Origin: Patescibacteria group bacterium
GTDB taxonomy: Bacteria > Patescibacteriota > Microgenomatia > Levybacterales > UBA12049
Reading direction: 5' to 3'
Assembly: GCA_023473545.1 (NCBI GenBank)
Contig: JAMCXO010000002.1
Span: forward strand, 6,340 to 70,339
Length of the DNA: 64,000 bases
The translations under genes were made by a program, and so were the position numbers. Each line of letters starts with the position of its first letter. Within the stretch, counting starts at the first letter, position 1. Positions 14,635-57,848 of the stretch are shown piece by piece. The notes below the pieces were generated by a model that worked only from the letters and a program-made list of their open reading frames with translations, ran no database searches and was not told the origin of the DNA.

Positions 14635-14734
14635 AATTAATAATTAATATCTTACTACAAGTAAAATGTAAATGCTATTCCGACTTAATAGTAACAGGAT
14701 TTGTTAAAGAAAGCGAGCGAATGGCCTTCAGATT

Positions 14735-40531: not shown

Positions 40532-41206
40532 CTATGAAGATTTTACGATTGCGGCAAATTCTAAAGGATCAAGACTTCCGCCCCCCACCAAAACCCCATC
40601 AATGTGTTCTTGGCTTGTAAAGCCGTGAATGTTCCCCGCGCTCACGCTCCCGCCGTATAAAACGGGCACGCCGCCGAGTTTGCTTTTGATTTCTCCCGCC
40701 ATTTTTTCCGCGTTTTCAGGAGTATCAGCAACACCGGAACCGATAGCAAATAAGGGCTCATAGGCAATGATGTAATTTTTAATTTTTAATTTTAAATTTT
40801 TGACTTGCTCTAAATTAGATATACAAATTATGGGAATTAAATCATGCCTTATGGACTGCTCAATTTTTTTTAAAATCATGTTCTCTTCTTCTCCAAAATA
40901 TCTTCTTCTTTCCGAATGCCCGATGATGACATAATCAGCAAACTCCTTAATCTGTCTTCCACTTACCTCTCCCGTATAAGCCCCTTCCTCAAAAGGCGAA
41001 ATATCCTGAGCGCCTAATTTGATTAATGATTTATAATTAATGATTAATGATTTAAGAATAGGCAGCAGGATAAAAGGCGGACAAACAATGATTTTCCTCT
41101 TGTCTCTTGTCTCTTGCCTGATGCCTGATACTTTCCGAAGCCACTCTTTGGCCTCCGGTTCGGTCTTATTCGCTTTCCAGTTGGCCACAATAAATAAAGG
41201 TTTCAT
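40532..41206 (-). CDS. tpiA: Triosephosphate isomerase.
   Basis: ANWKAN, IIGHSERR, and the AYEPLFAIGSG and YGGSV blocks. Confidence 0.85.
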   Translation of the reverse strand: MKPLFIVANWKANKTEPEAKEWLRKVSGIRQETRDKRKIIVCPPFILLPILKSLIINYKSLIKLGAQDISPFEEGAYTGEVSGRQIKEFADYVIIGHSERRRYFGEEENMILKKIEQSIRHDLIPIICISNLEQVKNLKLKIKNYIIAYEPLFAIGSGVADTPENAEKMAGEIKSKLGGVPVLYGGSVSAGNIHGFTSQEHIDGVLVGGGSLDPLEFAAIVKSS

Positions 41207-41242
41207 ATGGTAAAATTATAAACAGTCTATTCATTATACGCT

Positions 41243-43132
41243 ATGGACAATAATTTTCTCAATGAGCTGAATAAGGAACAAAAGAAAGCGGTTGAGCAAA
41301 CCGATGGGCCAATGATAATTTTGGCCGGTGCAGGATCCGGCAAAACCAGGGTTATTACCTATAAGGTGATTTTTCTTATTAAACAAGGGGTTGCGGCGCA
41401 AAATATCCTCTGTGTTACTTTCACCAATAAAGCCGCCAATGAAATGAAAGAGCGAATCCAAAAACTTCTCACTACGAACGAGAAACGACCAACGGCTAAA
41501 GACCAGCCGCTCATTACCACCTTCCACTCCCTCTCTGCCAAAATCTTAAGAATTGAAGGAGAGGCAATCGGCATTCCCCAAGGCTTTATCATTTATGATG
41601 AGAATGACCAGCTCGATGCGGTAAAAGAAGCAATGAAAAACCTTAATCTTTCCGCTAAGAATTACAAGCCTTCTTCCGTTCTGTTTTCAATCTCAAGCGC
41701 CAAAAACGAGCTTTTAACGCCTCCTGACTACAAAAATTTGGCCCGGGGCCATTTTCAGGAAGTTGTCGCAAGTATCTATTTTGTCTATCAAAAAATCTTA
41801 AAAGAAAACGGTGCTTTGGATTTTGACGATTTACTGATGAAAACCATTGAACTTTTTGAAAAAGAGCCGCCGGTGTTGGCAAAATATCAAAACCGCTTTC
41901 GCTATATCTTGGTTGATGAATATCAGGATACCAACCGAGCCCAGTATATTCTGACAAAAATGCTCTGCCTCAAATGGCAAAATATCTGTGTGGTAGGCGA
42001 TTTTTCCCAAAGCATCTACTCATGGCGCGGGGCGGATTTTACCAATTTAACTAAATTTAGACGGGATTTCAAAGAAGTGAAAATTTTTGAACTCCCCCAA
42101 AACTACCGCTCCACCCAAAAAATTCTGGACGCGGCCACCTCGGTTATTTCTCATAATACCACCCATCCGATCCTGACGCTTTGGACAGAAAATCCCCACG
42201 GAGAAAATATTACTGTTTATGAGGCAAGGAATGAGCAAAACGAAGGAGAATTTATTGTCAATCAAATTTTAAACTTTAAGTTTCAGTCCGCCAACCGGCA
42301 AACAGACTTCAAATATTGCGACACTGCTGTTCTTTACAGAACTAACGCCCAGTCACGGGTCATCGAGGAGATTTTTTTACATAGCGGCATCCCCTATGTC
42401 TTAATCGGGGGCACCAGATTCTATGAGAGGCGCGAGATAAAAGATGTCCTAGCCTACCTGCGCCTTTTAGCCAACCCCAAAGACATGATTTCCTACAAAA
42501 GAATTGAAAAACTGGGCAAGGGAAGAATGGGAAAATTTCTCAGCTACCAAGAGCACTTAAATAATACATATCATTTAGACAAAACAGCTAATCTGCCTCC
42601 TACCATCACGTTATTAGATGGCGTTCTAAAGACAACCGACTATCTTTCTCTTTACGACGCAAGGGACGAAGAAGACAAACAACGCCTCGAAAATATTAAG
42701 GAACTGCGCTCGGTGGCGGTAGAATTTCCCGGCCTAATCGCTTTTTTGGAGAATGTCTCTCTGGTCGAACAGGAATACCTGCCTGATCATCCGCTTCGAA
42801 ACGGAGAGAAAAAAGACGCGGTAGTACTTATGACCCTCCACGCGGCAAAGGGACTTGAGTTCAAAATAGTTTTCATGGTTGGCATGGAAGAGGGGCTTTT
42901 TCCCCATTCCAGAAGTCTAATGGATAAGAATGAATTGGAAGAAGAGAGAAGGCTTTGCTATGTTGGCATAACAAGGGCCAGGGAAAGGCTTTTCTTAAGT
43001 TATGCCCGAAGGCGCTTATTTTTTGGACAGAAAACCGCGAATGTGGTTTCAAGATTTATCTTTGAGCTGCCGGAGGATGTTCTCAAGAAAAATCTTAAAT
43101 CTCAAAATCAGAATGATCTTAAGTATCTATGA
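41243..43132 (+). CDS. ATP-dependent DNA helicase, UvrD/PcrA family.
   Basis: Walker A AGAGSGKT and UvrD helicase motifs throughout (TFHS, VDEYQDTN, YRS, VGITRAR). Confidence 0.9.
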   Translation: MDNNFLNELNKEQKKAVEQTDGPMIILAGAGSGKTRVITYKVIFLIKQGVAAQNILCVTFTNKAANEMKERIQKLLTTNEKRPTAKDQPLITTFHSLSAKILRIEGEAIGIPQGFIIYDENDQLDAVKEAMKNLNLSAKNYKPSSVLFSISSAKNELLTPPDYKNLARGHFQEVVASIYFVYQKILKENGALDFDDLLMKTIELFEKEPPVLAKYQNRFRYILVDEYQDTNRAQYILTKMLCLKWQNICVVGDFSQSIYSWRGADFTNLTKFRRDFKEVKIFELPQNYRSTQKILDAATSVISHNTTHPILTLWTENPHGENITVYEARNEQNEGEFIVNQILNFKFQSANRQTDFKYCDTAVLYRTNAQSRVIEEIFLHSGIPYVLIGGTRFYERREIKDVLAYLRLLANPKDMISYKRIEKLGKGRMGKFLSYQEHLNNTYHLDKTANLPPTITLLDGVLKTTDYLSLYDARDEEDKQRLENIKELRSVAVEFPGLIAFLENVSLVEQEYLPDHPLRNGEKKDAVVLMTLHAAKGLEFKIVFMVGMEEGLFPHSRSLMDKNELEEERRLCYVGITRARERLFLSYARRRLFFGQKTANVVSRFIFELPEDVLKKNLKSQNQNDLKYL

Positions 43133-44115
43133 ATAACGGCAATAATGAATACGCAGGGCATCCTTTGCAGAGTCTTGAGTGGGGAAAATTCAGACAAAAA
43201 ACAAAGGTAAAGGTTATTCGCCAAAACGGCTGGCAGATTACGATTCACAAAATCCCTCACACTCCTTGGGCAATAGGCTATTTTCCTAAGGGTCCCCCCC
43301 CGGATAAAGAAATGCTCAAACATCTTATACGAATTGGCAAAGATAATCATTGTATTTTTATTCAGCTGGAACCAAACGCGCAAAAAATTTCAAATTTCAA
43401 ATTTCAAATTTCAAATTTAGGATTACGTCCTTCCTTCCACCCTTTATTTACCAAATATACTTTTATTCTTGATTTAACAAAATCCGAAGAGGAATTATTG
43501 AAAAACATGCATCCTAAAACCCGGTACAACATTAAGATTGCCCAAAAGCACGCTGTGACAATCGTTGAGGATAATTCGGATAAGGCCTTTGAAGAATATC
43601 TAAAACTGACTAAGGAAACAACAAAACGGCAAGGTTTTTTTGCCCATGATGAAAAATATCACCGGCTGATGTGGGAAACCTTAAAAAGCCAAAAGCCAGA
43701 CGAAAATAAGCTAACCGCACATTTACTGTTAGCAAAATTCCGCCCTCCGAAATCTGGAATACGAGATCTGACCCTTGCCGCCTGGATTCTCTTTGTTTAC
43801 GGCGGCACCCTTTACTATCCTTACGGGGCGTCTTCCGATCAATATCGAAACGTGATGGCTTCAAGTCTAATGATGTGGGAGGCAATCAGATTCGGCAAGA
43901 AACTGGGTCTTAAAAAATTTGATATGTGGGGATCTCTTGGCCCAAATCCTAATAAGGAAGATCCATGGTATGGATTCCATCGGTTTAAGCAAGGTTATAA
44001 AGCAGAATTGGTCGAATTCGTCGGCAGCTTCGATTTGGTTATCAACCCTTTGCTCTATGTAATTCTTAGGATAACAGATCGTTTGCGTTGGTTTTTGCTC
44101 CGATTTATAAGATGA
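43129..44115 (+). CDS. FemAB-family peptidyl-transferase (peptidoglycan interpeptide bridge formation type).
   Basis: FemAB-like blocks (NMHPKTRYNIKIAQK...; LLLAKF...AAWILFVYGGTLYYPYGASS). It overlaps the uvrD stop and contains a heptamer repeat. Confidence 0.65.
   Translation: MNNGNNEYAGHPLQSLEWGKFRQKTKVKVIRQNGWQITIHKIPHTPWAIGYFPKGPPPDKEMLKHLIRIGKDNHCIFIQLEPNAQKISNFKFQISNLGLRPSFHPLFTKYTFILDLTKSEEELLKNMHPKTRYNIKIAQKHAVTIVEDNSDKAFEEYLKLTKETTKRQGFFAHDEKYHRLMWETLKSQKPDENKLTAHLLLAKFRPPKSGIRDLTLAAWILFVYGGTLYYPYGASSDQYRNVMASSLMMWEAIRFGKKLGLKKFDMWGSLGPNPNKEDPWYGFHRFKQGYKAELVEFVGSFDLVINPLLYVILRITDRLRWFLLRFIR
43391..43418 (+). repeat. Perfect tandem heptanucleotide repeat (CAAATTT)x4 inside the FemAB-family CDS, encoding ISNFKFQISN.
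   Basis: Seen directly in the sequence. The unit length is not a multiple of 3, so a gain or loss of one unit would shift the frame. Confidence 0.8.
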
Positions 44116-45842
44116 TGCTCGCCAGAAGGATACTAAATAGGTTAGAAAAGACAAATCTTCTTTATCTTTTTACCGTCATTTTTATTTTCGCCTTTATTGT
44201 TTACGGCCTATCGCTTTTTAACGGCTTTGTTTGGGACGACGAAGAGCAGGTTACGGCAAATTCCATCATACAGCATCTCTCCAATATCCCATACCTTTTT
44301 GCCACCAGCACCTTTAATAACGGAGGAGCCAGCGGCCTTTCCGGATTATACTATAAACCGCTAATGCCGGTATCGTTTGCCTTAAACTACGCAATCTGGC
44401 AAGGCCACCCGTTCGGTTTTCATCTGTTCAGTCTTGCCTTGCATATATTAAATACCTTTTTGGTGTTTATTCTTTTTAAGAAACTTTTTTCCTGGAAAGG
44501 ATTTAATTACGCAAACAGTATCTCCTTTCTGCTAGCGCTGTTATTCCTGGTTCATCCGGCAAATGTTGAAAGCGTTTCCTACATAGCAAGCACCCAGGAA
44601 CTTTTGTATACGTTTTTTACGCTAATTTGTGTTATTGTCTCTTTAACTTATTTTCTGGATAATAAAACCTCTTTTAAAATACTGCTTTTTATTAATGCCG
44701 CTATCTTGCTGTCTTTGCTGTCCAAGGAATCGGGTATTATCTCCATACCATTGGTAATAATGCTTAGTTTTCTTTTCAAGAAGAAAAAACTTTACGTTAT
44801 AGCCTCAAGCGCTGTTACTTTTTTAATTTATTTAACACTGCGCTTTGCTGTTGCCAAAACGCCTATTTTTAACAGCAAATCAATCGTGCCCATAGCCCAG
44901 GCAGATTTCCCAACCAGGCTAAAGACGGTTCCCTATGAATTGTTTTCCTATATTCGATTGCTATTTTTTCCAAAAGACCTGTTCGTTGCCCAATATAACG
45001 TAATTAAAAGCATCTCTGATCCAAGATTTTATTTATGCCTTGCTGCCTGTTTAATATTTTTCTCCATATTGATTATTTTCTATAGAAGAATCAAATCTAG
45101 GCTGTATCTGTTTTTTTTATTTTGGTTTATCTTCGCGATAGGGATTGTTTTAAATATTTATCCTTTGGATATGACCATTGCCGAACGATGGCTGTATGGC
45201 CCCATGATAGCGTTACTTGGCATGATCGGAACGGTTATCCTTTTCTGCGCTAAGAAAGACAATAGAATCATCGTCTGGTTTTCTATACTCTGTCTTTTTG
45301 TTATTCCTCTCTTTGCCGCAAGAAGCCTTATCCGCTCGATTGACTGGAAAAGCGACTTTAGCCTATTTTCGCATGATATTAAATATTCCGGTAATTCATT
45401 TGAGGCTCAAAACAATCTCGGCGTCGCGCTTTTTAGAAAGGGAAAATTCAAAGATGCCAAAATCCATTTTGAAAAATCAATAGCCTTATCTCCAAAATGG
45501 TGGACATCCTATAACAACTTAGGCGTTGTCTATGAACGGGAAGATAATCTGCCCAAGGCGTTAAGTCTTTACAAAAAATCCATCGTAAACGGCAACTATT
45601 ACTTAGGCTATGAAAATTTTGCCAAAATACTTTTCCGCGAGAAAAAATGGAGCCAGCTTATCAGATTTACGAAAAACGCCCTTGTTAAATTACCGCTTAA
45701 CGAAACGTTAAATAAATTGGCCGCGGTTTCCTATTACCGGACTAATAAAATGGCCAAAGCCAGGCTCTATGCCAAACAGGCTTTCCTGATTGATCCTTCT
45801 TCCGGAAACTACGCGTTTCTTCAGTTTCTTGAGAATAGATGA
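44088..45842 (+). CDS. Polytopic membrane protein with C-terminal TPR repeats (TMTC/PMT_2-like putative glycosyltransferase).
   Basis: About 10 N-terminal TM helices and C-terminal TPR-like repeats (NNLGVALFRKGKFKDAKIHFEKSIALSP, YNNLGVVYERE). Confidence 0.55.
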   Translation: MVFAPIYKMMLARRILNRLEKTNLLYLFTVIFIFAFIVYGLSLFNGFVWDDEEQVTANSIIQHLSNIPYLFATSTFNNGGASGLSGLYYKPLMPVSFALNYAIWQGHPFGFHLFSLALHILNTFLVFILFKKLFSWKGFNYANSISFLLALLFLVHPANVESVSYIASTQELLYTFFTLICVIVSLTYFLDNKTSFKILLFINAAILLSLLSKESGIISIPLVIMLSFLFKKKKLYVIASSAVTFLIYLTLRFAVAKTPIFNSKSIVPIAQADFPTRLKTVPYELFSYIRLLFFPKDLFVAQYNVIKSISDPRFYLCLAACLIFFSILIIFYRRIKSRLYLFFLFWFIFAIGIVLNIYPLDMTIAERWLYGPMIALLGMIGTVILFCAKKDNRIIVWFSILCLFVIPLFAARSLIRSIDWKSDFSLFSHDIKYSGNSFEAQNNLGVALFRKGKFKDAKIHFEKSIALSPKWWTSYNNLGVVYEREDNLPKALSLYKKSIVNGNYYLGYENFAKILFREKKWSQLIRFTKNALVKLPLNETLNKLAAVSYYRTNKMAKARLYAKQAFLIDPSSGNYAFLQFLENR

Positions 45843-45852
45843 ATCGCGGGAT

Positions 45853-47598
45853 TTATCTTTTTTGCTGATGGTACATGCTTATTAGCTCTTTTACGCTGGT
45901 GGCGTCTTCCGCCTTTTTATCAACGCCTCTAAATGAAACCAAGCGGGGAAATCTTAAGGCATACCCCGGCTCCTCCCCGGTCTTTCCGGCGGTATGGATT
46001 GGGGAGCGGGTAATTTCATCCGCCAAAACCTCAACAACAATCTTTGGTTCAACCCAAACGCTTGGCGTGATTAAAGAATTGACCCTTGCCGGCTTAGCCT
46101 GAACCTTAAATTTTGAACTTTGAACTTTTATTTCCCGCCACTCCTCATCCGTTAGTCCGGTGCCGATTTTGGAAACCGTTACAAACTCATCTTTTTTATC
46201 ATCATAAAGCCCTGCCAAAAGCGCTCCCGCGCCAAAGGCTGTCCTTTTCCCTTTGCCGGAAATATAACCTAAAACCACGCAGTCAATTGTATCGCGCAGC
46301 TCTCCGGCTGAATGCCGTTTGAGCTTGACCCAGTTAAAATTTCTTCCTCCTGCCTCGTATTTACTCTCAAGTTTTTTTACCACTATCCCTTCCAAACCTT
46401 TAGAGATTGCGTCATCAAGAATTAAACCAAGTTTTTTCGGATCCGAAACCCTTTGATCTTTGGTTGGAATAAGAATACCATTCTCTTTAATTGTCCCGTG
46501 AAGTATTTCAAGCCTTTTATAAAGCGGCTCGTCAATTAAAGATCTTCCGTTTTCATAAAGAATGTCAAAAACGAATGCCTTAAGAGGCAGTTTTTGGGCC
46601 ATTTCTTCAATACCGTATTTTCGGCGCCTTTTGGTGGTTTCCTGAAAAGGCAGAAATTCTTCGGACTCCAGATTGTATGCTAATGCCTCGGCATCAAGAA
46701 TTGCTGTTTTAGCCTTTACCTGCCTTATTGTTCCTTCGATAAGCTCTGGAAACATATTGGTCATGTTCTCAAGGTTTCTGGAAAACATAAAGACCTCTTT
46801 GCCATTCTTATGGATTTGGATCCTGAATCCATCGTATTTATACTGCGCGTCAACCTCTCTCATTTTCTCAATGACTTTATCCGTAGTCGTAAGACGCTCG
46901 CAGAGTTCCGACCTTATTGGCTTACCAACCTGGACTTTAAGTTTTTCAACCTCATTTAATCCTTTATCAAAAAGGGTTTTGGCAATAAGACCAAGATCTG
47001 ATGTTCGGTTATAAGCTCCTTCCAAAAGCTTTCTTTTAGAACGGTCTCCTAATTTTGCCTTTGCCAACGCGTCCAGAATGGTTGGGTCCCCAATGCCTAA
47101 GCGAAGATTTCCCAAAGGAATGCGAACCAGATGTTTTGCCGAGATCGGATCCAGTTTTTTAAGAAGATCTGATAGGAGGAACTGCTTTCTTTCAACCGTT
47201 CCGGTACCTTTTGTCTTGGCAATCTGAACCAGAATATTAAATACTTCTGTAACCGATAAATCTTGGAGTTTGGACTTTGGGTTTTGGGTTAGCTGTACCG
47301 CAACTATCCCCATGTCGCCTAGTTTGGTATACAATCCCAGAACTTCTTCTTTCTTGGAACCATACGCCAGTGCCATTGCCTGGGCAACCGTCTTCTCCGC
47401 CATGCCAATTTCTAAAGGCTCAAAAAAAGGGGCGATTCTCCCTTGCGTCAGATAGATAACCTTTTCTACCTCGCTTTTTGAACATTGTTTAAAAAGATCG
47501 GAAAGAATATCAATAAGGGCAAGGCGCGAGGGAGTTTTTTCAAGTTTTTCAAAATAATCCGCCAGAAGGGAAAACCGCATACAGAAGTATTTTAACAT
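45853..47598 (-). CDS. lig: ATP-dependent DNA ligase (archaeal/eukaryal-type).
   Basis: Motif I KYDGFR, motif V LEGIVVKK, and an OB-fold domain at the C-terminus. Confidence 0.85.
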   Translation of the reverse strand: MLKYFCMRFSLLADYFEKLEKTPSRLALIDILSDLFKQCSKSEVEKVIYLTQGRIAPFFEPLEIGMAEKTVAQAMALAYGSKKEEVLGLYTKLGDMGIVAVQLTQNPKSKLQDLSVTEVFNILVQIAKTKGTGTVERKQFLLSDLLKKLDPISAKHLVRIPLGNLRLGIGDPTILDALAKAKLGDRSKRKLLEGAYNRTSDLGLIAKTLFDKGLNEVEKLKVQVGKPIRSELCERLTTTDKVIEKMREVDAQYKYDGFRIQIHKNGKEVFMFSRNLENMTNMFPELIEGTIRQVKAKTAILDAEALAYNLESEEFLPFQETTKRRRKYGIEEMAQKLPLKAFVFDILYENGRSLIDEPLYKRLEILHGTIKENGILIPTKDQRVSDPKKLGLILDDAISKGLEGIVVKKLESKYEAGGRNFNWVKLKRHSAGELRDTIDCVVLGYISGKGKRTAFGAGALLAGLYDDKKDEFVTVSKIGTGLTDEEWREIKVQSSKFKVQAKPARVNSLITPSVWVEPKIVVEVLADEITRSPIHTAGKTGEEPGYALRFPRLVSFRGVDKKAEDATSVKELISMYHQQKR

Positions 47599-47624
47599 AA
47601 AAATATGCTATACTTTGCTTTTAT

Positions 47625-49259: not shown

Positions 49260-49273
49260 AAATCCTAAAATCT

Positions 49274-49573
49274 TTGATCTTTGATCCGATTTATTGTATT
49301 ATACCAACTATGAAAGCCAAGAAAAAACAGGAGAAAAAACTTCCCATAGAAGTGGTGCGCCAGATGCTCGTCCTTTCAACCAGCGGCTTTGGTTTGGTTG
49401 CCGCTTTGGCCTGGAATAATGTTATTCAGGAATTAGTCAATGACTACATTAAAAAATTGCTGCCTAAAGGCGGAAGCGCTATGTCGCTCTTAGTTTATGC
49501 CGTAGCTGTAACTGCCCTAGCTGTTTTTGTAACCTGGGAACTCTCTAAAATCATCGAGAGGCTGGAAAAATGA
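49274..49573 (+). CDS. Small membrane protein (one or two TM segments).
   Basis: Hydrophobic segments (LVLSTSGFGLVAALAWNNVI; LLVYAVAVTALAVFVTW). Confidence 0.4.
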   Translation: MIFDPIYCIIPTMKAKKKQEKKLPIEVVRQMLVLSTSGFGLVAALAWNNVIQELVNDYIKKLLPKGGSAMSLLVYAVAVTALAVFVTWELSKIIERLEK

Positions 49574-49577
49574 TCTT

Positions 49578-50462
49578 TTATAAAAAAGAGGCCATTATTT
49601 TAGGAATTTCATCTGCTAAATCCGAAGCGTTAAAGTAATATCCTACCCGTTTGAATAAACTATCTCCTGCCATTTTGTTAAAAAAACTACCGGCCAAGGC
49701 TGAAAGAAAGGCGCCGTTTTTACAGTAAAGCGCAGCCACCAGTCCGGATAGAACATCCCCTGTTCCGCCTTTTGTCATACCCGCGTTCCCGCCGTTGACC
49801 CCAGCGCATCCTTCGGTTGATGAACAAACAATATCATTCTGGCCTTTAAGCAAGATCACGCATTTGTACTTTCTCGCTATTTCTAAAACGACTGAATCAT
49901 GAATCAGGAATTTTGAATGATGGTTCTTATTCCTTATTCCTGATTCCTGATTTTTAATTCTTAATTCGTTCTCAAATAGAATCTCAAACTCCTTACGATG
50001 GGGCGTTAAAATGGCATTTCGAGGAATAATTCTAGGATCCATAACCTGAAGGCTCCCCCCGTCAATTATCCATTTTTTGCCGGGATATTTTTTTAAAAGA
50101 GTCTCCGTCAGCTTTTTTGTGTCGTCATCCCCCTCTTCCTGCCCTTCTAAACGCGGCAGGCCAGGACCGATCAAAACACAATCCGCCTCCTTGATATAAC
50201 TATCTATTTTGTCTCTGGGAACAATAATGCCGTCTCTAAATTCTTCTTTGCACCTCTGGACTATAGCGTTGTTTTCCGGGATAGAGGAGTAAAAAACCAT
50301 ATCAACAATTCTTGAAGCTATCTTTAAAGACCATAGAGACGCCGCGTGAAACAATCTTGATCCGCCAATAACAAGAAGCTTTCCGTTCTGTCCCTTGTGG
50401 GAATCTTTTCTCGGGAGATAGAGTTTCTTCAGTTCTTCCCTGCTAAATGGATACATAAACAA
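49578..50462 (-). CDS. nnr: ADP-dependent NAD(P)H-hydrate dehydratase (YjeF C-terminal domain family) with an internal low-complexity insertion.
   Basis: HKGQNGKLLVIGGS and GTGDVLSG motifs. The insertion (RIKNQESGIRNKNHHSKF) is encoded by the tandem micro-repeats at about 49900..49970. Confidence 0.7.
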   Translation of the reverse strand: MFMYPFSREELKKLYLPRKDSHKGQNGKLLVIGGSRLFHAASLWSLKIASRIVDMVFYSSIPENNAIVQRCKEEFRDGIIVPRDKIDSYIKEADCVLIGPGLPRLEGQEEGDDDTKKLTETLLKKYPGKKWIIDGGSLQVMDPRIIPRNAILTPHRKEFEILFENELRIKNQESGIRNKNHHSKFLIHDSVVLEIARKYKCVILLKGQNDIVCSSTEGCAGVNGGNAGMTKGGTGDVLSGLVAALYCKNGAFLSALAGSFFNKMAGDSLFKRVGYYFNASDLADEIPKIMASFL

Positions 50463-50501
50463 ATGCTCCTCCTGTCCAATATACTAGCATACCGGAAGCA
50501 C

Positions 50502-51509
50502 TTAATGCTGAAGGCTTAGAAAGCGTTCGACCTCCAAGGCGGCCATACAGCCAAAACCGGCCGCTGTTATCGCCTGTTTATATAAACTGTCATGAACGTC
50601 CCCTGCCACAAAAACGCCCTCTATGTTTGTCTTCGTATGATCATAAACCTTAATGAAACCCTTCTCATCCGCGTCTATACCCTGAAAAACTTTTGAATTC
50701 GGAATATGTCCGATTGCGACAAACACTCCGTCAGCCGGCATTTCCCAGGCTATTGTCTGGTCTTGAACTGCCAGTGCTTGACCCCCCATTTCCTCAGGCA
50801 AAATTTCTTTTTCTTGGTTTTGGGTTTTGATCTCTATCTTTGATCTTTGATCTTTGATCTTTGATCTTATTTGAACCTTCTCCACCTTCCTCTCCCCCAG
50901 TATTTCCGCAATCTCGCTGTTAAATATAACCTTGATTTTAGAGCTGTTAAACACCTTCTCCTGCATGACGGCGGACGCGCGAAAAGCATCTTTTCTATGA
51001 ATAAGGATCACCTCGCTGGCAAATTTTGTTAGAACCAGCGCCTCTTCCATTGCACTGTCTCCACCTCCTACAACTATAACCTTTTTGTTTCTGAAAAAAG
51101 GGGCATCGCATGGAGCACAGGTTGATACCCCTTTGCCAACTTTCTCCTTTTCGCCCGGAACCCCAAGCCATTTTGTATCGGCTCCTGTGGCGATAATAAC
51201 CGATCTTCCCTCGTAGGCTTTTCCCGCAACGGAAATCGCGAATGGAGATTTGGAAAAAGCAGTTTGAGAGAAATCTTCGTCCAGAAACCGCGCCCCAAGT
51301 CTTTCCGCTTGCTTTCGCATCGCTGTCATTAACTCAGGCCCCTGAATTCCTTCCGGGAAACCGGGAAAGTTTTCAACAAGAGTCGTCAGCATTAACTGCC
51401 CGCCCCATTTTGCTCCGGCTATAACTAGTGTCCTAAGATTGGCGCGGGTGGCATAGATAGCGGCAGTTAAACCCGCGGGGCCGGAACCGATGATAATAAC
51501 GTCATGCAT
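50502..51509 (-). CDS. trxB: Thioredoxin-disulfide reductase with an insertion of about 20 aa encoded by a heptamer repeat.
   Basis: FAD motif GSGPAGLTAA, redox-active CAPC, NADPH motif GGGDSAMEEA, and an extra KIKDQRSKIEIKTQNQEKE segment. Confidence 0.9.
   Translation of the reverse strand: MHDVIIIGSGPAGLTAAIYATRANLRTLVIAGAKWGGQLMLTTLVENFPGFPEGIQGPELMTAMRKQAERLGARFLDEDFSQTAFSKSPFAISVAGKAYEGRSVIIATGADTKWLGVPGEKEKVGKGVSTCAPCDAPFFRNKKVIVVGGGDSAMEEALVLTKFASEVILIHRKDAFRASAVMQEKVFNSSKIKVIFNSEIAEILGERKVEKVQIRSKIKDQRSKIEIKTQNQEKEILPEEMGGQALAVQDQTIAWEMPADGVFVAIGHIPNSKVFQGIDADEKGFIKVYDHTKTNIEGVFVAGDVHDSLYKQAITAAGFGCMAALEVERFLSLQH
50838..50865 (-). repeat. Tandem heptanucleotide repeat (CTTTGAT)x4 (+ strand) inside trxB, encoding SKIKDQR-type repeats in frame.
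   Basis: Seen directly in the sequence. Confidence 0.8.
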
Positions 51510-51552
51510 AAAAAACCAAAATCAAAACGCGAAGTGCTGAATCTTTGATTTG

Positions 51553-51879
51553 TTACGAAGCTAAAACCTCTTCTATTTCCTTCTTAAAGTTTTCTTTGCT
51601 TTGGGCCCCAACCATGGTCTTTATCGGCTTGCCATCTCTGAAGATAATAAGACTTGGAATACTCATTACCGCGTAACGAGAAGCTGTTTGCGAATTCTCA
51701 TCTACGTTGAGTTTTCCCACCTTTAATTTATCCTGATACTCCTTGGCCAGCTCTTCAACAATAGGAGAAACCATTCTGCAGGGGCCGCACCATGGAGCCC
51801 AAAAATCAACCAGAACAGGAAGCTTACTCTGCAAAACTTCCTGATCAAAACTAGAGTCGGTAATTACAAAATCCGCCAT
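51553..51879 (-). CDS. trxA: Thioredoxin.
   Basis: WAPWCGPCR active site; 108 aa. Confidence 0.9.
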
Positions 51880-51971
51880 TTATAAATTAACAATAGCAAA
51901 ATCTTTCTTTTCTGTCAACGGAAAAAATTAAACCGGAGGTATATTGGAGGAAAAAAGGGGTATATCCGGTA

Positions 51972-53558
51972 TTAAAAGGATGAAAGCTCTTCCCGTTTTG
52001 TGCGCAAAAACAAAAACCACTGCTCAAAGAATGAAAACAAACCCTTAAAAGGGGCTTCTATTAAGAAATCAAAGACAAAAAGAACAATACTTATCTGCGA
52101 TACTCCCTCTGTTAAATTTCGGCCAACCCGAACTATAGGCATAAAGAAAAAATCAATAAGGGGCGTTAAAAGACTTTGTTTCTCCAAAACATTATACATA
52201 TTCGCGGTTAAGATTATTCTGTAAGACAAAAAAGATACCACTGCTAAAAAAAGAAGGAATACTCCTTGGCTCACAATATTAAAATGAAGCTTGGTCAAGA
52301 TAAAAACTATTGCCCCAAAAGAAACAAAGAAGGCCAGAAACCATAAAAATGTAAAAACAATGTTTAATAAGGGCTGTTTTTGGTCTTTTCTTCCTTTAAT
52401 AACCAAAGGGTCGCCAAGAACTGGACTATCTTCATATAAAACTTCTTCTATAATCTTTAGTATTGCCCTAGAATTGTCATCTGCCGGAATACGGATAGAG
52501 ACCCCAACCAACACCATAAGAAAAGACGGCATGGCAATGTTCAAAAGCATAGACCCTAGAAAAACTTGTCCGTAGAAAATCCTTTCATAGGTTGACTCTA
52601 CTAAAATCGCGATTAGGGCCTTTGTTAAAAGAACAAAGGTAACGCTTCTCACAACCGCCCGTCTAACCTTGGAGGCAATCCCTTGATATCTTACCCTACA
52701 AAGGCCAAAGATTACCTGCTTCAATAAACTCGTATCTCCTACCAAAACCCTAATATTCCCTCTTTGGGTAGAAAGCGCATCCTCTAAAATCAGAAAGGGA
52801 GGGGTTCTTCTTTTGATATAAGAATAAATACTATCTTTAGCCGGATAGTAAATCTGCCTATTTATTTCTTTATATCCTGCCATAAAGTTGGCGGCAATCT
52901 TTTCAAGATTATCTTTTGTCCGTTCTCCAAAAAACTGTCTAAATAATTGATATCTTAAAAAAGCAATATCGTCTCTGTTGAATGCTTTTCTAATTGCCAA
53001 AAGAACCTGGGCGTCCCTTGTTTCGGTTGTTTCATCCAAAAGAGTAACATGATATCTCAAAATTTGAAACATAAAACTTGCCATAATTTCCCTTTCGGTA
53101 TTGGGGTTTACAATATGGGCAATGTCTGAGGAGACAAGCTGATAAATCCATTCGTTTATTGTTCTTTCCCGTAGTATTTCTTTTTTAATAAGAGACTGCC
53201 TAAGGGTCAAATAATAATTGATTGATTGATTAACCTCCTCTACGATTTTACCGCCTATCTGGCCATCGGGGATATAACGCGCCCATAGTAATTCGCGAAG
53301 CAAGGGTTCTGCTATGCTACTAGGATTTCCTCCGAGAAGAAGACGTCTTTTAAGGATTCTTTCAATAGCCGATCTTAGAATAACCTCCTCTTCTCTATAC
53401 TCCATGACATTGCGAAGTTTTTCGTATAAATAGGCTATTTGGGAAACAATGGGGTTTACTTTAAGCTTTGTTTCGTTATCGTGCGGCTCTTCTCTTTCAA
53501 AAGCAGAAATAAGTACATTTGCCAATCTCGCAAGGGGCTTGGTATCTTCTGTCGCCAT
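51972..53558 (-). CDS. Hypothetical protein with a soluble N-terminal half and a polytopic C-terminal membrane half.
   Basis: ORF plus hydrophobicity pattern; no family recognised. Confidence 0.45.
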   Translation of the reverse strand: MATEDTKPLARLANVLISAFEREEPHDNETKLKVNPIVSQIAYLYEKLRNVMEYREEEVILRSAIERILKRRLLLGGNPSSIAEPLLRELLWARYIPDGQIGGKIVEEVNQSINYYLTLRQSLIKKEILRERTINEWIYQLVSSDIAHIVNPNTEREIMASFMFQILRYHVTLLDETTETRDAQVLLAIRKAFNRDDIAFLRYQLFRQFFGERTKDNLEKIAANFMAGYKEINRQIYYPAKDSIYSYIKRRTPPFLILEDALSTQRGNIRVLVGDTSLLKQVIFGLCRVRYQGIASKVRRAVVRSVTFVLLTKALIAILVESTYERIFYGQVFLGSMLLNIAMPSFLMVLVGVSIRIPADDNSRAILKIIEEVLYEDSPVLGDPLVIKGRKDQKQPLLNIVFTFLWFLAFFVSFGAIVFILTKLHFNIVSQGVFLLFLAVVSFLSYRIILTANMYNVLEKQSLLTPLIDFFFMPIVRVGRNLTEGVSQISIVLFVFDFLIEAPFKGLFSFFEQWFLFLRTKREELSSF

Positions 53559-53582
53559 GGGGGTTATTATATACTAAGATCT

Positions 53583-54158
53583 TTAACCTTGCAGAGCCTC
53601 TGCTTCTTCTTTAGAGAATTCCTTCTTTTTGCCAATACCTGCTAACGGCAGGATAAATCTATCCAGCCCCCACCATCCGGCGGTTCTTGAGGCAAAAATT
53701 AAGAGAAGCTCCAAGACAAAGAGTATCGGGTTGGTGCTGACAGTACCTGCCAAAAGATAATTCATATTCATAAACGCACCAAAAAAAGCCGCAATGCCCG
53801 TAAAGATTCCCAAGATAAGGGCTATCCCAACTAAAACTTCTCCATAGGATACCAAATAGGAAAAAATTGTAAGATTATGCATCACCAGTCCTGTTAGAAA
53901 TTGCGCATACCAACCCTGTACCTGTGGATGCGCTCCCCCTGTCTTGGCTAGAGCACCAACAAGAAAACCATGCAAGGCAACTCCTGTCTTAGAGCCGACC
54001 CAGACAGGACTCTGAACTTTTTCTATCCCCGCCGAGAGCCATTCCCAGCCGACATAAAGCCTGACTATAGCCCAAAACCAGGCAAAGGACATATTAGCAA
54101 ATAAAAACCTGGACAATCCGGACTCGGGTATCTCTGTTGCGTTAGGTTTTTTATCCAT
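53583..54158 (-). CDS. DoxX-family membrane protein.
   Basis: Four TM segments with a DoxX-like N-terminal region (RLYVGWEWLSAGIEKV). Confidence 0.5.
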   Translation of the reverse strand: MDKKPNATEIPESGLSRFLFANMSFAWFWAIVRLYVGWEWLSAGIEKVQSPVWVGSKTGVALHGFLVGALAKTGGAHPQVQGWYAQFLTGLVMHNLTIFSYLVSYGEVLVGIALILGIFTGIAAFFGAFMNMNYLLAGTVSTNPILFVLELLLIFASRTAGWWGLDRFILPLAGIGKKKEFSKEEAEALQG

Positions 54159-54392
54159 CTTGAGAACTTCCTTGCTATTTTTCTTTCTCTATCTTTTTCC
54201 AAAGCCAGACACCAAGAAGTATTAAGTCAACCAGAATAATTATCTGAAAAATTAATCCTGTTAATAAACCTGCTCCGTTTCCCCATCCCCACATCATATT
54301 TATCACCCTTTTTACAGTATTTCCTATATAGAAGGGTTTGTCAATATACAGATCGTGTTTTGACGGGGGCGAAGACTACTTCCTGCCCGGAA

Positions 54393-54755
54393 TTATTGAG
54401 AGAAAGAAGAAGTATCCTGACTGTTCCGGGTAATCCCGGTTGATATTTGCGACATATCGGTTGAGTCAAGCGTTTGCATTGCCTCATTAAGATTCTGCTT
54501 GGTATTTATGGGTTGTGGGGTTACCTGTTGAATTTGATTTTGTAGAGCTTGCTGGGTTTGCCCTCGCGGTGTTTGCACTGGCTGATACTGTCTAATTTGC
54601 CCCCGAGGTTGCGCGGTTCCAGTCTGTTTGCCTACCATCACCATAACTATCACAAAAAGAATCGCTACTGTCCCAAGAGAAAAGGCAATTATTGTATATA
54701 AGCCCTTGTGGCTGTGCACTTCTGTTGGTATGGTTGATTGTATTTGTTCGTCCAT
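54393..54755 (-). CDS. Hypothetical membrane-anchored Q-rich protein (GC-rich insert).
   Basis: ORF with one TM segment; local GC is about 50% against a 35-38% background. Confidence 0.4.
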   Translation of the reverse strand: MDEQIQSTIPTEVHSHKGLYTIIAFSLGTVAILFVIVMVMVGKQTGTAQPRGQIRQYQPVQTPRGQTQQALQNQIQQVTPQPINTKQNLNEAMQTLDSTDMSQISTGITRNSQDTSSFSQ

Positions 54756-54757
54756 AG

Positions 54758-55546
54758 TTATGGTGTTAATGTCACGCTTGGCGTAACTCCCGATGTTTCA
54801 GCTGGACTACTTGACGATGTTGCGCTCGGCGCTCCATTTGAATTTATGCTCGGCAGCGTTCTGACTGCGACAATAAGGTTTTTAATGGAGGTTCTATAAT
54901 CTTCCAATCCTTTAAGCACTGCCTGCATGTCTGTTCTGTACTGGGTCATTAATGCCCCCGGATTATTGCCGGTACAGGAAAAGCCGGTTACATCAGATTG
55001 GGCCGCTACAACTAACGGCGTAAGAGTGTTTTCTCTGGTGGCAATATCCGCAACAAGAGAATCATAGGACGGAAGGGTTGTTCCTGAGGGAACAACCTTT
55101 GTCAGATAATACCGCTCAACTCCTTGAGCGATTGACGTAAAGGTTTTCTCCATTTGCGTTGCTAAACCAACCAGATGTGTTGAACGATGAACAAGCACCT
55201 TCTCAATACGCTGGCATGCTTGAAGTCTTCTTCCCTGTAAATGATTTTGCGCAAAGGCAGGCACATGAACTACGGCCTGCTGCTGCATGCTGTCTGACTG
55301 TTGAAGCGGTTGGCCATTTTGGCCTGCCGGCGCGGAGGCTGCTTGTCCTTCCTGTTGAGACCTATATCCGTCTCCCTGGCTATTTGGTCTATTAAAACCG
55401 GGATTAGCGTAACCTACGCCTTGGGGCCTACCAAAGGCTAAAACTTGATTTACAAATATAAAAACAGGGATAAGAAAAAGAAGGATTGGAATATATAAGA
55501 AGCGCTTATAAAAGAACTCTCTCATGTATTTAGCATACAATGCCAA
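54758..55546 (-). CDS. Hypothetical secreted/membrane-anchored protein (GC-rich insert).
   Basis: N-terminal TM/signal segment, then a Q/G/S-rich linker and a globular domain; elevated GC. Confidence 0.4.
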   Translation of the reverse strand: MALYAKYMREFFYKRFLYIPILLFLIPVFIFVNQVLAFGRPQGVGYANPGFNRPNSQGDGYRSQQEGQAASAPAGQNGQPLQQSDSMQQQAVVHVPAFAQNHLQGRRLQACQRIEKVLVHRSTHLVGLATQMEKTFTSIAQGVERYYLTKVVPSGTTLPSYDSLVADIATRENTLTPLVVAAQSDVTGFSCTGNNPGALMTQYRTDMQAVLKGLEDYRTSIKNLIVAVRTLPSINSNGAPSATSSSSPAETSGVTPSVTLTP

Positions 55547-55568
55547 TCATTCGGTGTCAAGCTTTTCG

Positions 55569-57848
55569 TCAAAAAATCTTGAATATCTTAGTTTGGCCTT
55601 TTTCAAAAACAATCTTTCCCAATTTATAAAATTTATTCTCGTTAAGATTGGGGTATTTCTGTCTCTCTAAATCTCCGATGAAAATATATTTTATATTATA
55701 TTTCTTAAGAAGGCTTTTGGTTAGTTTTAAATTATTCTCCTCATATAAATTCTTTACATCCGGTATTCTTGCAGCAGGAATATTGTAGGTTCCCCGCCAT
55801 AACCATTCGTGAACAGTCCAGCCCAAAACAGTGGGAATGCCCGTGTTTGCCGAAACCCTGGCGTAATCGGTATACGAATCCCCTTGGGCCTCCAAGATTA
55901 CCGGCTGTCCCTTAACATGCGCATTTAACCACTGTATAGCCTCATAATCACTGGGGTAAAGATCTTTAAGATAGGCTGTTCCATTTAAACCATGATAGGT
56001 CTTAAGATTATCATAATAAGAATTTATGGCAAAATAAGGATAGATTGATACCAAAAATAGACCGATGCCTCCTATAAGTATTGCCGCTAATTGCCAGTAA
56101 TTTACTCTTTTCTTTAGGCCTTCTTTAAAATCGGAAATTATTCTTGTTATGGCATAGGCAGAGGCTATCGAAAGCATAATAAAGGCCTGATAAACAAGTT
56201 TAAACATGGTATTTGCCCTAAAATAGGTTGTATAAATATCTTTCAGATAAAAAAATTCAGGCGCAATAATAAGAACGCTTGAAAAAAGAATTAAAATTAA
56301 AACAAAAAGATCAGAAGGGGGAAAATTTTTAATTCTAAACTTAAAATTTTCAATCAAATTCAAATGATTAAATTTTAATTCTTTAAAAACTTTTGAGTTT
56401 TGATTTTTGATTTTAACAATAATAAACAAAGCCGCCCAAAAATAGAAAAAGCCGTATAAAATAAATAATTGCCAGACAGGAGAAGTCTGGCAGTAATTTT
56501 TTTCGAAAAGAAAGGGCCCTATTTTGCCGATTTTTGTTAAAAAATGGGGGGCACAGTTAATGCCGATACCGGAAACAAAGGGTTTAAAATTGACATTGAA
56601 AGGCAAAGAAAAAATAAAAAAGCAAATAGCAATCAGCAGCAAATAAATAATAAATGTGTAAATCTTTGATTTTAAATTTCTAATTTTAAATGAGTCCATA
56701 ATTCTTAATTCATAATTCTTAATTCGTGGGGGTTCGGAAGAAGGATCTATTAAGATAAGATACCCCAAAACTAAAAAGGCAAGAAGAAAGTAGATCAACC
56801 CGTCCCAGGCATTTGTCATATACATCACCGCTAATAAAAAGCTTATTAGGGGAATTTGTAGTCTTAAATTTCTAATTTTTAATGGATGCTCAAGGTTTAA
56901 GTTTTTAAATAACGACAGTAAAACGGCAATTATCAAAAGCACAAATGGAACATCTAAAACATGTCCATGAAGATCCGAGACCACAAAAGAATAAATAGGA
57001 AATTCATGAATCGTGTGGTAAATAAACCGGGTCGCGTTAGGATACCAGTAATTATTCGGGAAGGTAAAAGGAGAAAACGGCATTTGCCAAAAAGGAAGAG
57101 GATTGTTCGAATTATAGCCCGAAAAGAAAGAGTATATTGTTTGGAGATTTCCTGCAAAAGAAACTAAAAACGCAGTTAGCAATCCCCCCATTACAACTTT
57201 TGAATTTTGAGTTGTGTTTTTAAGTTTACTAATCAAGTTGGCGCCAATCGAAAATGACTCCATAAACGTCAAGGCAAATAAAGTAGCAATCATTAAATTA
57301 AAAGTAATATTGGAAGGTATGTTTGAAATTTTGGTTAATACCGCTGTTACTAAATGTCCAAAATAATAATAATTTATGGGAAGAGGCGTAAACCACATAT
57401 CTTTTGGCGGGAAATAGGTGCTTCGTAAAATTGAATTAAGAAAACCAAAATCCATGAATTTTTCAAGTCCATGGATATCCGGCTGATGGGCTCTGATATA
57501 AACCCAAAATAAAAAAGAGGCTAAAAATAAAATTTCCTCCAGTAAATAAATCGGCCGGTTTTTTTTATAAATCACAAAGTAATCTTCTTTTTTCATAATT
57601 AAAAAATTGATAATCGCGAAAAAGGAAAGGAGCATAATAAGACTGGGTTTATTAAAGGCAAGAATATGCGCTACGCCCAAAACGAAAATGGCATAAGATA
57701 TAATAGCCGCGCCGATTATCTTTGAAAAAATATATCCGTTGTCAAAAAGATTCCTTAAGAAGAAAAAAGTAAAAGGCAGAAAGATACTGCCCACCAAGAA
57801 TAAAATAAACCACCAAGTAAGGGCGTTAATTAAATCGGCTATAGGCAT
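55569..57848 (-). CDS. DUF2298 / Chlor_Arch_YYY-family polytopic membrane protein (putative glycosyltransferase), with three in-frame low-complexity insertions.
   Basis: The PINYYYFGHL motif lies in the N-terminal third, alongside many TM helices and a C-terminal soluble domain (YTDYARVSANTGIPTVLGW). The insertions are encoded by tandem micro-repeats at about 56300..56420, 56640..56730 and 56850..56890. Confidence 0.6.
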   Translation of the reverse strand: MPIADLINALTWWFILFLVGSIFLPFTFFFLRNLFDNGYIFSKIIGAAIISYAIFVLGVAHILAFNKPSLIMLLSFFAIINFLIMKKEDYFVIYKKNRPIYLLEEILFLASFLFWVYIRAHQPDIHGLEKFMDFGFLNSILRSTYFPPKDMWFTPLPINYYYFGHLVTAVLTKISNIPSNITFNLMIATLFALTFMESFSIGANLISKLKNTTQNSKVVMGGLLTAFLVSFAGNLQTIYSFFSGYNSNNPLPFWQMPFSPFTFPNNYWYPNATRFIYHTIHEFPIYSFVVSDLHGHVLDVPFVLLIIAVLLSLFKNLNLEHPLKIRNLRLQIPLISFLLAVMYMTNAWDGLIYFLLAFLVLGYLILIDPSSEPPRIKNYELRIMDSFKIRNLKSKIYTFIIYLLLIAICFFIFSLPFNVNFKPFVSGIGINCAPHFLTKIGKIGPFLFEKNYCQTSPVWQLFILYGFFYFWAALFIIVKIKNQNSKVFKELKFNHLNLIENFKFRIKNFPPSDLFVLILILFSSVLIIAPEFFYLKDIYTTYFRANTMFKLVYQAFIMLSIASAYAITRIISDFKEGLKKRVNYWQLAAILIGGIGLFLVSIYPYFAINSYYDNLKTYHGLNGTAYLKDLYPSDYEAIQWLNAHVKGQPVILEAQGDSYTDYARVSANTGIPTVLGWTVHEWLWRGTYNIPAARIPDVKNLYEENNLKLTKSLLKKYNIKYIFIGDLERQKYPNLNENKFYKLGKIVFEKGQTKIFKIF

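Follow-up and report, generated by a model that had tools for sequence, protein, structure and literature searches.

Heptanucleotide tandem repeats read in frame within housekeeping genes of a Patescibacteria genome

How can tandem repeats with a 7-nucleotide (nt) unit, the length of which is not divisible by three, be accommodated within the reading frames of housekeeping genes? The question is raised by a 64,000-nt stretch of contig JAMCXO010000002.1 (positions 6,340 to 70,339 of the forward strand, assembly GCA_023473545.1), called the window here, from a metagenome-assembled genome (MAG) of the Patescibacteria/Microgenomates type. The window has a G+C content of about 40%, and the closest homologs of its proteins, with 60–79% identity, belong to MAGs of Levybacteria, Microgenomates, and Gottesmanbacteria. 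Over 21 kb it is identical to contig JAMCTM010000051 (L001) of assembly GCA_023379465.1, in which the TrxB protein of the window is also encoded. [quoted passage not shown] A preliminary description of the window reported short in-frame 7-nt repeats in several genes and attributed them to a dispersed family propagated by insertion rather than by slippage. The analysis presented here indicates that the sites in the window are probably heptanucleotide simple-sequence repeats (SSRs) shaped by slippage and selection. If a pervasive and still-active 7-base process exists, it would be a concrete mutational source of the insertions that distinguish these bacteria.

Tandem Repeats Finder assigned period 7 to 22 of its 54 rows for the window. 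The number of exact period-7 arrays with at least two copies is 22, compared with 4.7 expected from dinucleotide-preserving shuffles (maximum 11), and the exact arrays of periods 4, 5, and 8 match expectation. A scored scan, for which codons were shuffled within genes 100 times, identified 15 period-7 arrays, compared with a mean of 1.35 in the shuffled sequences, none of which reached 15 (maximum 4). The same scan identified six arrays of period 5 (3.3 expected) and four of period 6 (2.3 expected), neither distinguishable from the control, one of period 9 (0.04 expected, a count reached by 4 of the 100 shuffles), and none of periods 8 and 10–12. The shuffles that served as controls are simple ones. 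No period from 5 to 12 besides 7 is clearly enriched in the window. Thirteen of the 15 scored arrays are located in open reading frames (ORFs); the gene positions in the window and in its relatives are derived from crude ORF maps. Every site named in the preliminary description exists, and additional arrays beyond the range that it covered start at 14633, 19194 (in pth), 63156, and 63582. An assembly artefact has been rejected, since the arrays are at most 43 nt long, are in frame, and recur in independent assemblies.

More than ten different 7-nt units occur within the window. On the sense strand, most of the in-gene arrays are composed of A-rich AAnnTCA or AAnnTTA units. All but two of the in-gene arrays contain stop codons on the antisense strand, mostly in all three frames. 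The antisense strand is free of stops in the CAAGAGA and AACCCAA-type arrays, and a further exception, in its reversed orientation, is the array at 63156. Three units of 7 nt correspond to seven codons, so that all three frames of the unit are used, and AAGATCA is translated to KIKDQRS. The general pattern AAnnTCA is read as K-(I/F/L/V)-K-x-Q-x-S. The encoded peptides are rich in K, I, N, S, Q, and R, with K accounting for 21% of residues compared with 8% in the window proteome. The K/I/R/N/Q-rich character noted previously is thus confirmed, with S also enriched.

The history of one array can be followed at trxB. The array in the window (50826..50868, minus strand) has the sense sequence (AAGATCA)x4, exact, which reads ATCTTTG/CTTTGAT on the other strand, followed by degenerate units, and encodes IRSKIKDQRSKIEIK. 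It constitutes only the first part of a CPR-type insertion of about 31 residues (approximately 50769–50864), by which the protein exceeds both solved thioredoxin reductases (TrxRs) and those CPR TrxBs that have a 15-residue linker. What had been described as a novelty of 12 residues is therefore longer, about 31 residues, and old. The TrxBs of CPR form two classes, one with a 15-residue linker and the other with a linker of 43–47 residues, and some of the long-linker proteins (from the relatives' loci L126 and L132) have no heptamer signature at the insertion. In an AlphaFold2 model based on 33 sequences, the insert is predicted to form ordered β-strands, with block-mean predicted local distance difference test (pLDDT) values of 87–95. 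Because of this predicted order, the insert is probably a structured surface extension and not a floppy loop.

The trxB loci of four relatives (L002–L005) have been compared with the window. Exact four-copy arrays at the orthologous site are composed of AAGATCA in the window, AAAGTCA x4 (plus 2) in L002, and AAGCTCA in L005; L004 has a degenerate AAAATCA/AAGATCA array. The linker is 47 residues long in the window, L002, L004, and L005 alike. In the corresponding peptides KIKDQRS, KVKSQKS, and KLKAQSS, the three variable residues co-vary exactly as dictated by one 7-nt unit, and an alignment of TrxB peptides contains K-x-K-x-Q-x-S with unit-wise co-variation in many more lineages. The occurrence of different exact units within the same total length indicates concerted evolution in place. 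Arrays thus persist at a site while their units are replaced and homogenized separately in each lineage.

Two further observations concern the surroundings of trxB. The loci L003 and L004 (10640–10690 and 1925–1990, respectively) share 88% DNA identity around trxB, are unalignable at the array, and differ there by 12 nt; L003 has the G+C-richer stretch ACTACCTCGGGCCC where L004 carries heptamers. In many relatives, the roughly 110 nt that precede the trxB start contain arrays of differing units, including TTAGCGT, TTAGAAA, CTATCTT, and CTAGTTG (L005 9910–9927; L127 3939–3986; L136 3965; L139 3962; L142 3963; L149 3890; L195 3912; L197 3916). The array of L005 lies in the trxA–trxB spacer, and those of several relatives are also between trxA and trxB. 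According to a rough estimate, arrays at this location are three to four times more frequent than the average for intergenic DNA.

The enrichment extends to relatives. In 80 loci of relatives, recovered solely for encoding a TrxB relative and totaling 493 kb, there are 64 period-7 arrays, compared with 2.4 expected; period 6 (33 arrays, 10.6 expected) and period 9 (8 arrays, 0.4 expected) also exceed expectation, and periods 5 and 8 are flat. A pooled set of these loci, the window, and L002–L005 (632 kb) contains 102 arrays, of which 52% are in ORFs and 40% are in the approximately 18% of bases that are intergenic in the crude ORF map. This intergenic excess fits a generator that is blind to position, combined with purifying selection in genes. 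The same distribution bears on the idea that selection for a useful K/Q-rich heptad peptide, or codon usage in low-complexity AT-rich loops, has produced the periodicity as a side effect. The array peptides are indeed compositionally alike, many lineages have K-x-K-x-Q-x-S in trxB, and the trxB insert is predicted to be ordered. However, the units are identical at synonymous positions, the variable residues change together as one 7-nt unit, codon shuffling abolishes the signal, and the arrays include the intergenic 40% and some in rRNA genes. Selection on the peptide is therefore largely refuted as the origin of the periodicity and retains next to no probability.

Arrays of this kind are not confined to Patescibacteria. 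When genomes, one per species, were scanned for (AAnnTCA)x4, at least 120 stretches were identified; those listed, which are only indicative, include 23 from Patescibacteria, 24 from cyanobacteria, and many from Bacteroidota and Pyrinomonadaceae. Among the matches listed, sense ORFs of at least 120 residues contain the arrays in 18 of 25 cases from Patescibacteria (baseline 0.47) and in 8 of 29 cases from cyanobacteria (baseline 0.45). Units do not appear to be shared more within a genome than between genomes: six pairs among the 15 arrays of the window share a unit, compared with about 3.5 expected from a vocabulary of about 30 units in a rough count, which is unconvincing, and three sites in L005 have three different units.

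The genes of the window accommodate arrays in two ways. The preliminary description considered the sites to be insertions relative to orthologs, and alignments of the host proteins support this for trxB, nnr, the DUF2298 gene, and pth; by contrast, at tpiA, the ligase, and FemAB the homologous segments are equal in length or differ by no more than a few residues, which speaks against insertion there. The array in the peptidyl-tRNA hydrolase gene pth (19194..19220, minus strand) has the sequence (AATCAAn)x4 and encodes NQKSTIKNQ, and the protein has about eight residues more than solved Pth. In tpiA, three positions on the minus strand are occupied by arrays. The first (40773..40800), with sense (AAAATTA)~4, encodes KNLKLKIKNY in a segment that differs by only 2–4 residues in length from homologs. 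The second (41020..41052), with sense (AATCATT)~4.7, encodes KSLIINYKSLIK in a segment that is equal in length in CPR orthologs and differs by two residues from solved TpiA. The third (41097..41129) consists of two short adjacent arrays, CAAGAGA x2.9 and ATCAGGC x2.1. The ATP-dependent DNA ligase gene has an AAAGTTC-type array (46100..46128, minus strand) encoding KVQSSKFKVQ, which has a counterpart at the same site and of the same length in the L002 ortholog, and a degenerate array (47263..47290, minus strand) encoding LTQNPKSKLQ, where L005 has an exact (AAGTTCA)x4.5. Both ligase sites hold arrays in L002 and L005, and the ligase of L005 contains an additional lineage-specific insert of 13 residues made of AAATCGC x4.5. 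In the FemAB-family gene, (AAATTTC)x4.9 (43385..43418, plus strand) encodes KISNFKFQISNL in a segment of near-equal length in FemX and in the ortholog from locus L209, and a second small array, AAAAGCC x2.1, is at 43684–43698; in the L209 ortholog, AATCATC x4 occupies the second site instead.

The gene for the DUF2298 membrane protein, on the minus strand, has arrays in three loops. Loop 1 (56853..56884) contains degenerate heptamers that encode PLKIRNLRLQI; loop 2 (56661..56725) contains (GAATTAA/GAATTAT)x4 with further degenerate units and encodes RIKNYELRIMDSFKIRNLKSKIY; and loop 3 (56325..56414, with a tract at 56391–56414) contains AAAATCA AAAATCA AAACTCA, followed by about ten degenerate units, and encodes KIKNQNSKVFKELKFNHLNLIENFKFRIKN. 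The three loops are hypervariable: they are empty in orthologs of 698 residues and up to about 70 residues longer in others, and the orthologous proteins range from 698 to 885 residues. The long loops of orthologs hold KSQINSK, EIKNEKLKIKN, and NWNLFRIWNFEF. Two DUF2298 proteins of the same cluster of at least 90% identity, P0203 and P0259, differ by a 34-residue module, KSQITNHKSQINNNAQNPKNSKVLNFRNWRLFGVWNFEFG, which only one of them has. The protein with the module carries a near-copy of it in another loop. Other DUF2298 orthologs (for example P0136, P0167, and P0172) contain NWKLKIEN and NWNLFGAWNFEF, with W at every seventh residue. These W-bearing peptides look like products of arrays that have the TGA-containing orientation and in which changes of TGA to TGG removed the stops, and the L209 DNA sequence AATTGGAATTT is consistent with such a change.

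A change by a single unit was identified at loop 1 in a relative of the window organism. The contigs L206, L207, and L208 come from three samples of one project and carry a Levybacteria-type DUF2298 gene, in which the polymorphic loop (L206 601–720, L207 2164–2290, and the same loop of L208) is equivalent to window 56853–56884. L207 has (AATTTTC)x4 and an intact ORF of 758 residues, whereas L206 and L208 have (AATTTTC)x3, which leads to a stop codon and a split gene with a downstream ORF of 408 residues. An alignment of L206 with L207 over 2630 nt has no mismatches and a single 7-nt gap, which indicates that a one-unit change at a coding array arises faster than point substitutions. Judging by the contig names, the assemblies were made with k = 141, and therefore the 28-nt array should pose no assembly problem. 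The intact and the broken form both reach dominance in samples. The downstream ORF of L206 and L208 starts at a methionine right after the loop, and the two halves of the protein might be made separately. The three assemblies, which differ by one 7-nt unit, support slippage and in part also the earlier suggestion that units not divisible by three could act as frameshifting on/off switches: a one-unit change does split the gene, although it does so in a relative and the evidence for switching itself is indirect.

The polymorphism is one reason to ask whether the arrays are contingency loci, in which 7-base slippage reversibly switches genes or tunes promoters as a form of adaptive bet-hedging. 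A one-unit change shifts the frame, and each exact array is therefore a potential off switch or a mutational liability. Besides the intact and frameshifted alleles in otherwise identical contigs, several truncated members of the DUF2298 clusters begin just after loop 1, and the products of the DUF2298, FemAB, and PMT-like genes act at the cell envelope, where the arrays may provide a switch in host-attached organisms. The intergenic array between the divergent Fic and DUF5654 genes (49270..49286, no strand assigned, ATCTTTG x2.4) overlaps a promoter-like site composed of a -35-like TTGATC, a spacer of 17 nt, and TATTAT (49274–49302), and a change of units there would alter the sequence upstream of the -10 element; the recurrence of arrays between trxA and trxB in relatives can be viewed in the same way. 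However, most of the hosts are single-copy housekeeping genes (trxB, tpiA, the ligase gene, nnr, and pth), the off state of which should be harmful, and instead of a preference for surface or host-interaction genes, the hosts are a mixture of housekeeping genes with DUF2298 and FemAB. In addition, the arrays are short, with no more than five exact units, the copy number at the trxB site is constant across lineages, and the split allele may be merely a deleterious or neutral variant. Adaptive switching is thus an unlikely general account of the arrays. The promoter-like site with the array-supplied -35-like hexamer is 8 nt upstream of the DUF5654 start codon.

The arrays in nnr, which encodes NAD(P)HX dehydratase, differ from the others in their arrangement. 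The insert (49885..49975, minus strand, with the repeat tract at 49893–49967) consists of two inverted heptamer arrays and encodes ELRIKNQESGIRNKNHHSKFLIHDS. The arms of the hairpin (49895–49918 and 49929–49952) are 24 nt each, 83% complementary, and 10 nt apart. Of all local inverted repeats in the window this one is the longest, and no other array site has inverted arms. Relative to shuffled sequences, the hairpin has a folding z-score of -5.5 as DNA and, with the default parameters of ViennaRNA, of -6.9 (49885–49975) or -4.2 (another stretch), whereas most other arrays of the window fold no better than shuffles (z = -0.2 to -1.1). The insert gives the protein about 15 residues more than homologs in the PDB. 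It is missing in CPR orthologs of 266–275 residues, and other orthologs, with 67–74% identity, keep both arms. Since it is common to orthologs this divergent, the hairpin is old and not a recent hop.

Larger hairpins, of 130–160 nt with arms formed by complementary heptamer arrays, are present in relatives, with z-scores from -2 to -6.8. They are located in non-coding DNA (L034, L065, L081, L082, L111, L127, L138, and L158 1692–1825), directly 3′ of the trxB stop codon (L005), in frame within DUF2298 loops (L206, and twice in L209), and within 23S rRNA genes (L002 at 12535–12687 and 13758–13913, and L158 6248–6385); the hairpin of L176 is spanned by an opposite-strand ORF of 139 residues. In the two L209 copies and the one intergenic L158 copy, the variant units follow one another in the same order, and an exact 20-mer is common to all three.

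These hairpins are evidence for a mobile or otherwise copy-and-paste element, similar to a Rickettsia palindromic element (RPE) or a miniature inverted-repeat transposable element (MITE), which would insert in frame into genes; a family propagated by insertion was the view of the preliminary description. RPEs show that in-frame palindromic insertions exist (PMC10969869). Empty ortholog sites are found for nnr and DUF2298, the relatives' palindromes occupy contexts as different as two loops of one DUF2298 gene, intergenic DNA, the region after trxB, and 23S rRNA, and the 34-residue DUF2298 module is present or absent within one cluster. In the window, however, inverted arms occur only at nnr, where they are old. 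An nhmmer profile of the 140-nt composite element of L209 and L158 yielded many hits, of high compositional bias, in other CPR loci, and its best match in the window has E = 7.3, so that none there is credible. Searches of the whole window for direct and inverted repeats of a common element returned only shared units, and alignment of the flanks by eye revealed no conserved flanks or termini; target-site duplications, which were not specifically sought, were not recognized at the fuzzy array edges. The string claimed to be shared between nnr and DUF2298 is exact at nnr 49954–49968 and has one mismatch at DUF2298 56712–56726. A 15-nt exact match between the two genes, TAATTCTTAATTCGT, does exist, but it consists of just two copies of one unit with three flanking bases, and is read in different frames. 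With more than ten units in the window, and with different units at different sites and even at orthologous sites, the idea of a mobile family fails for the window as a whole. It stays alive for the subset of hairpins in which the internal order is conserved in several contexts, as a family consensus is found among the relatives (twice in L209 and in L158) but not in the window. Hairpin-templated copying would give the same picture for these hairpins. As an explanation of the sites in the window, a mobile element is considered unlikely, to about the same degree as adaptive switching.

The paired arms have also been evaluated as functional nucleic-acid signals under selection for structure, such as binding sites of single-strand-binding or cold-shock-type proteins, RNase III sites, or terminator hairpins. 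The nnr arms stay complementary in the three orthologs for which DNA is available, and changes on both arms in the window convert an A–A mismatch to a G–C pair. The palindromes located after a stop codon and in 23S rRNA resemble intervening sequences, and a regulatory role has been proposed for TAACTGA repeats, with CspB binding heptamers (PMC4679880). By contrast, most arrays of the window are structureless, the covariation comes from three sequences only, and hairpin-templated mutation would also yield paired changes. Searches of Rfam identified no family for the arrays or hairpins; there were only weak hits to miRNA precursors, which are usual for long hairpins. A functional signal is considerably less probable than either a mobile element or adaptive switching.

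Some further features lie in loci outside the window. The 23S rRNA gene of L002 spans 4645 nt, compared with the 2925-nt model, and its hairpins resemble intervening or expansion segments. The same gene contains a group I intron (L002 15357–15582; Rfam RF00028, 68 bits). Genes annotated as "23S rRNA intervening sequence protein" (PF05635) adjoin the syntenic Fic, ligase, and trx genes in L210 (7240–7596 and 8708–9127) and L005 (8241–8627). In L032, a MAG of Bacteroidales, a long TTTTGAG array on the minus strand at about 3146 precedes GGTGCTTGGAATTTGGAATTT, a sequence similar to the core of the composite element of CPR; the resemblance may reflect a shared origin across phyla or coincidence.

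For the window, the preferred and probable reading is one of SSRs on which slippage and selection have acted. A process that operates on DNA and is shared by this group of Patescibacteria would generate 7-nt arrays and keep homogenizing them, most likely by slipped-strand mispairing at replication, and inverted pairs would be produced by hairpin-templated copying. Arrays would arise anywhere and be filtered by selection afterwards. Within genes, only those with a stop-free orientation and an in-frame total length, positioned in protein segments tolerant of change, would survive. The tolerant sites would then be those where a loop could be lengthened, as in trxB, nnr, DUF2298, and pth, or where a segment of similar length could be overwritten, as in tpiA, the ligase, and FemAB. 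The enrichment, the orientation, the insertions, the persistence at orthologous sites with different units, and the one-unit polymorphism of the relative are observed, whereas slippage in the genome of the window and the in-frame growth of arrays are inferred. Several points weigh against this reading. If an array in an essential gene were to grow by slippage of single units, it would have to go through a frameshifted state, and homogenization of four-copy arrays at constant length is not explained by slippage. Some composite elements of relatives keep the order of variant units at different places, which looks like copying of longer pieces. The arrays are not wildly unstable: members of clusters with at least 90% identity mostly have the same length at array sites, and strain-level comparison within such clusters identified few indels (5–7 residues) and none in clean arrays. 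The trxB and DUF2298 protein clusters of the window organism have one member each. Finally, the search pattern may account in part for the preference for AAnnTCA-type units.

A broader proposal is that the arrays and the inverted-pair hairpins belong to one CPR-wide class of self-renewing DNA, made by template switching or an unknown copying process. Such DNA would add new peptide segments to conserved proteins and expansion or intervening segments to 23S rRNA, toggle envelope genes by 7-nt steps, and be a main source of the lineage-specific insertions that mark the proteins and rRNAs of CPR. This proposal is speculative and rather unlikely, if somewhat less so than a mobile element. More immediately, the arrays tolerate being read in frame, persist for a long time at their sites while their sequence changes, and can break a gene by one unit. 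In practice, they can cause gene calls to be split and give rise to spurious "novel" low-complexity domains when MAGs are annotated.

Repeats of the same general kind are known from other organisms. Cyanobacterial short tandemly repeated repetitive (STRR) heptamers, STRR1–3, are fixed-unit families, and Borg repeats located within genes have unit lengths divisible by three. Heptanucleotides are the commonest class of long SSRs with units of 5–11 nt in prokaryotes, for which polymerase slippage has been proposed, and the SSRs usually found within genes have unit lengths divisible by three (Mrazek, Guo and Shah 2007, as summarized in PMC4679880). The arrays described here resemble the long SSRs of that summary in having head-to-tail 7-nt units far above expectation and a patchy phylogenetic distribution. 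Unlike in the survey as summarized, 13 of the 15 arrays of the window are in genes and in frame, many of them in housekeeping genes. TAACTGA repeats occur in Beggiatoaceae, cyanobacteria, and Bacteroidetes (PMC4679880). Like STRR and TAACTGA repeats, the arrays have stop codons on one strand, which leaves one orientation usable in genes, and many are just upstream of start codons, with which the arrays recurring between trxA and trxB in relatives can be compared. Unlike these repeats, which have one fixed unit and are mostly intergenic, the arrays have many units that change between lineages; by inspection, the units listed for the window include no rotation of TAACTGA or of its reverse complement TCAGTTA.

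The nnr insert of the window and the DUF2298 inserts of relatives are similar to RPEs and MITEs (PMC10969869) in that palindromic DNA of about 90–160 nt, which also occurs outside genes, is translated in frame as part of unrelated metabolic genes and contributes a peptide where the protein tolerates it. However, RPEs have a family consensus and a conserved peptide, whereas the sites in the window lack a consensus and the palindromes are built from tandem heptamers; a link to a transposase or a target duplication was not seen, the latter not having been specifically sought. The in-ORF unit not divisible by three, and the alleles of the relative's DUF2298 gene that are intact or frameshifted by one unit, are features of SSR phase variation (PMC11868660). 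Classical contingency loci have longer tracts, mostly with units of 1–5 nt, in surface or restriction-modification genes of host-adapted pathogens, whereas most hosts here are housekeeping genes and the alleles were compared between samples. Similar to the tandem repeats of Borgs (PMC9879509), the arrays are fast-evolving, arise independently, and write compositionally biased peptide segments into proteins. The Borg peptides of that account are disordered, whereas the units here are of 7 nt and the trxB insert is predicted to be ordered. The arrays thus belong to a kind of repeat that is already known, although the lineage and the setting are new, and no report of heptamer repeats in CPR/Patescibacteria was found in the literature searched, which comprised open-access papers. 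The arrays differ from the known cases in the lineage, the high in-frame share in housekeeping genes, the persistence at orthologous sites with turnover of units, and the inverted-pair hairpins that are also present in rRNA genes and ORFs.

The remaining repeats of the window are less prominent. An ATAATTA x2.4 array (14633..14649, no strand assigned) coincides with or closely precedes the start codon of an ORF for an AAA-ATPase (13528–14634, minus strand), which it overlaps by two bases. An amine-oxidase-like gene on the minus strand contains two arrays: AAAGTTC x2.4, as written for the plus strand (63156..63172), which has the TGA-containing orientation in a frame that misses the stop codons, and an AAATCAA-type array (63582..63608) that encodes EIKNQNAKVR. 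The C-terminal tail of a DHH-family protein, also proposed previously as a 7-nt site, does contain a repeat (35959..36011, minus strand); however, it has a period of 21 nt, or seven residues, with 2.5 copies and 72% matches, and is not a clean heptamer array. A pattern of the same kind occurs in the L209 FemAB protein, where residues 86–97, at the AAATTTC site, form the 7-residue peptide repeat SSMVNSKWSMVN, which implies a DNA period of 21 nt. The scored arrays are unevenly spread over the window, which may reflect gene tolerance or a regional effect: of the 15, 13 are in the last 24 kb (40700–63700) and only 2 in the first 40 kb (1–40000), where the genes include those for FtsK, PNPase, an AAA-ATPase/Lon-lid protein, IF-2, and NusA.

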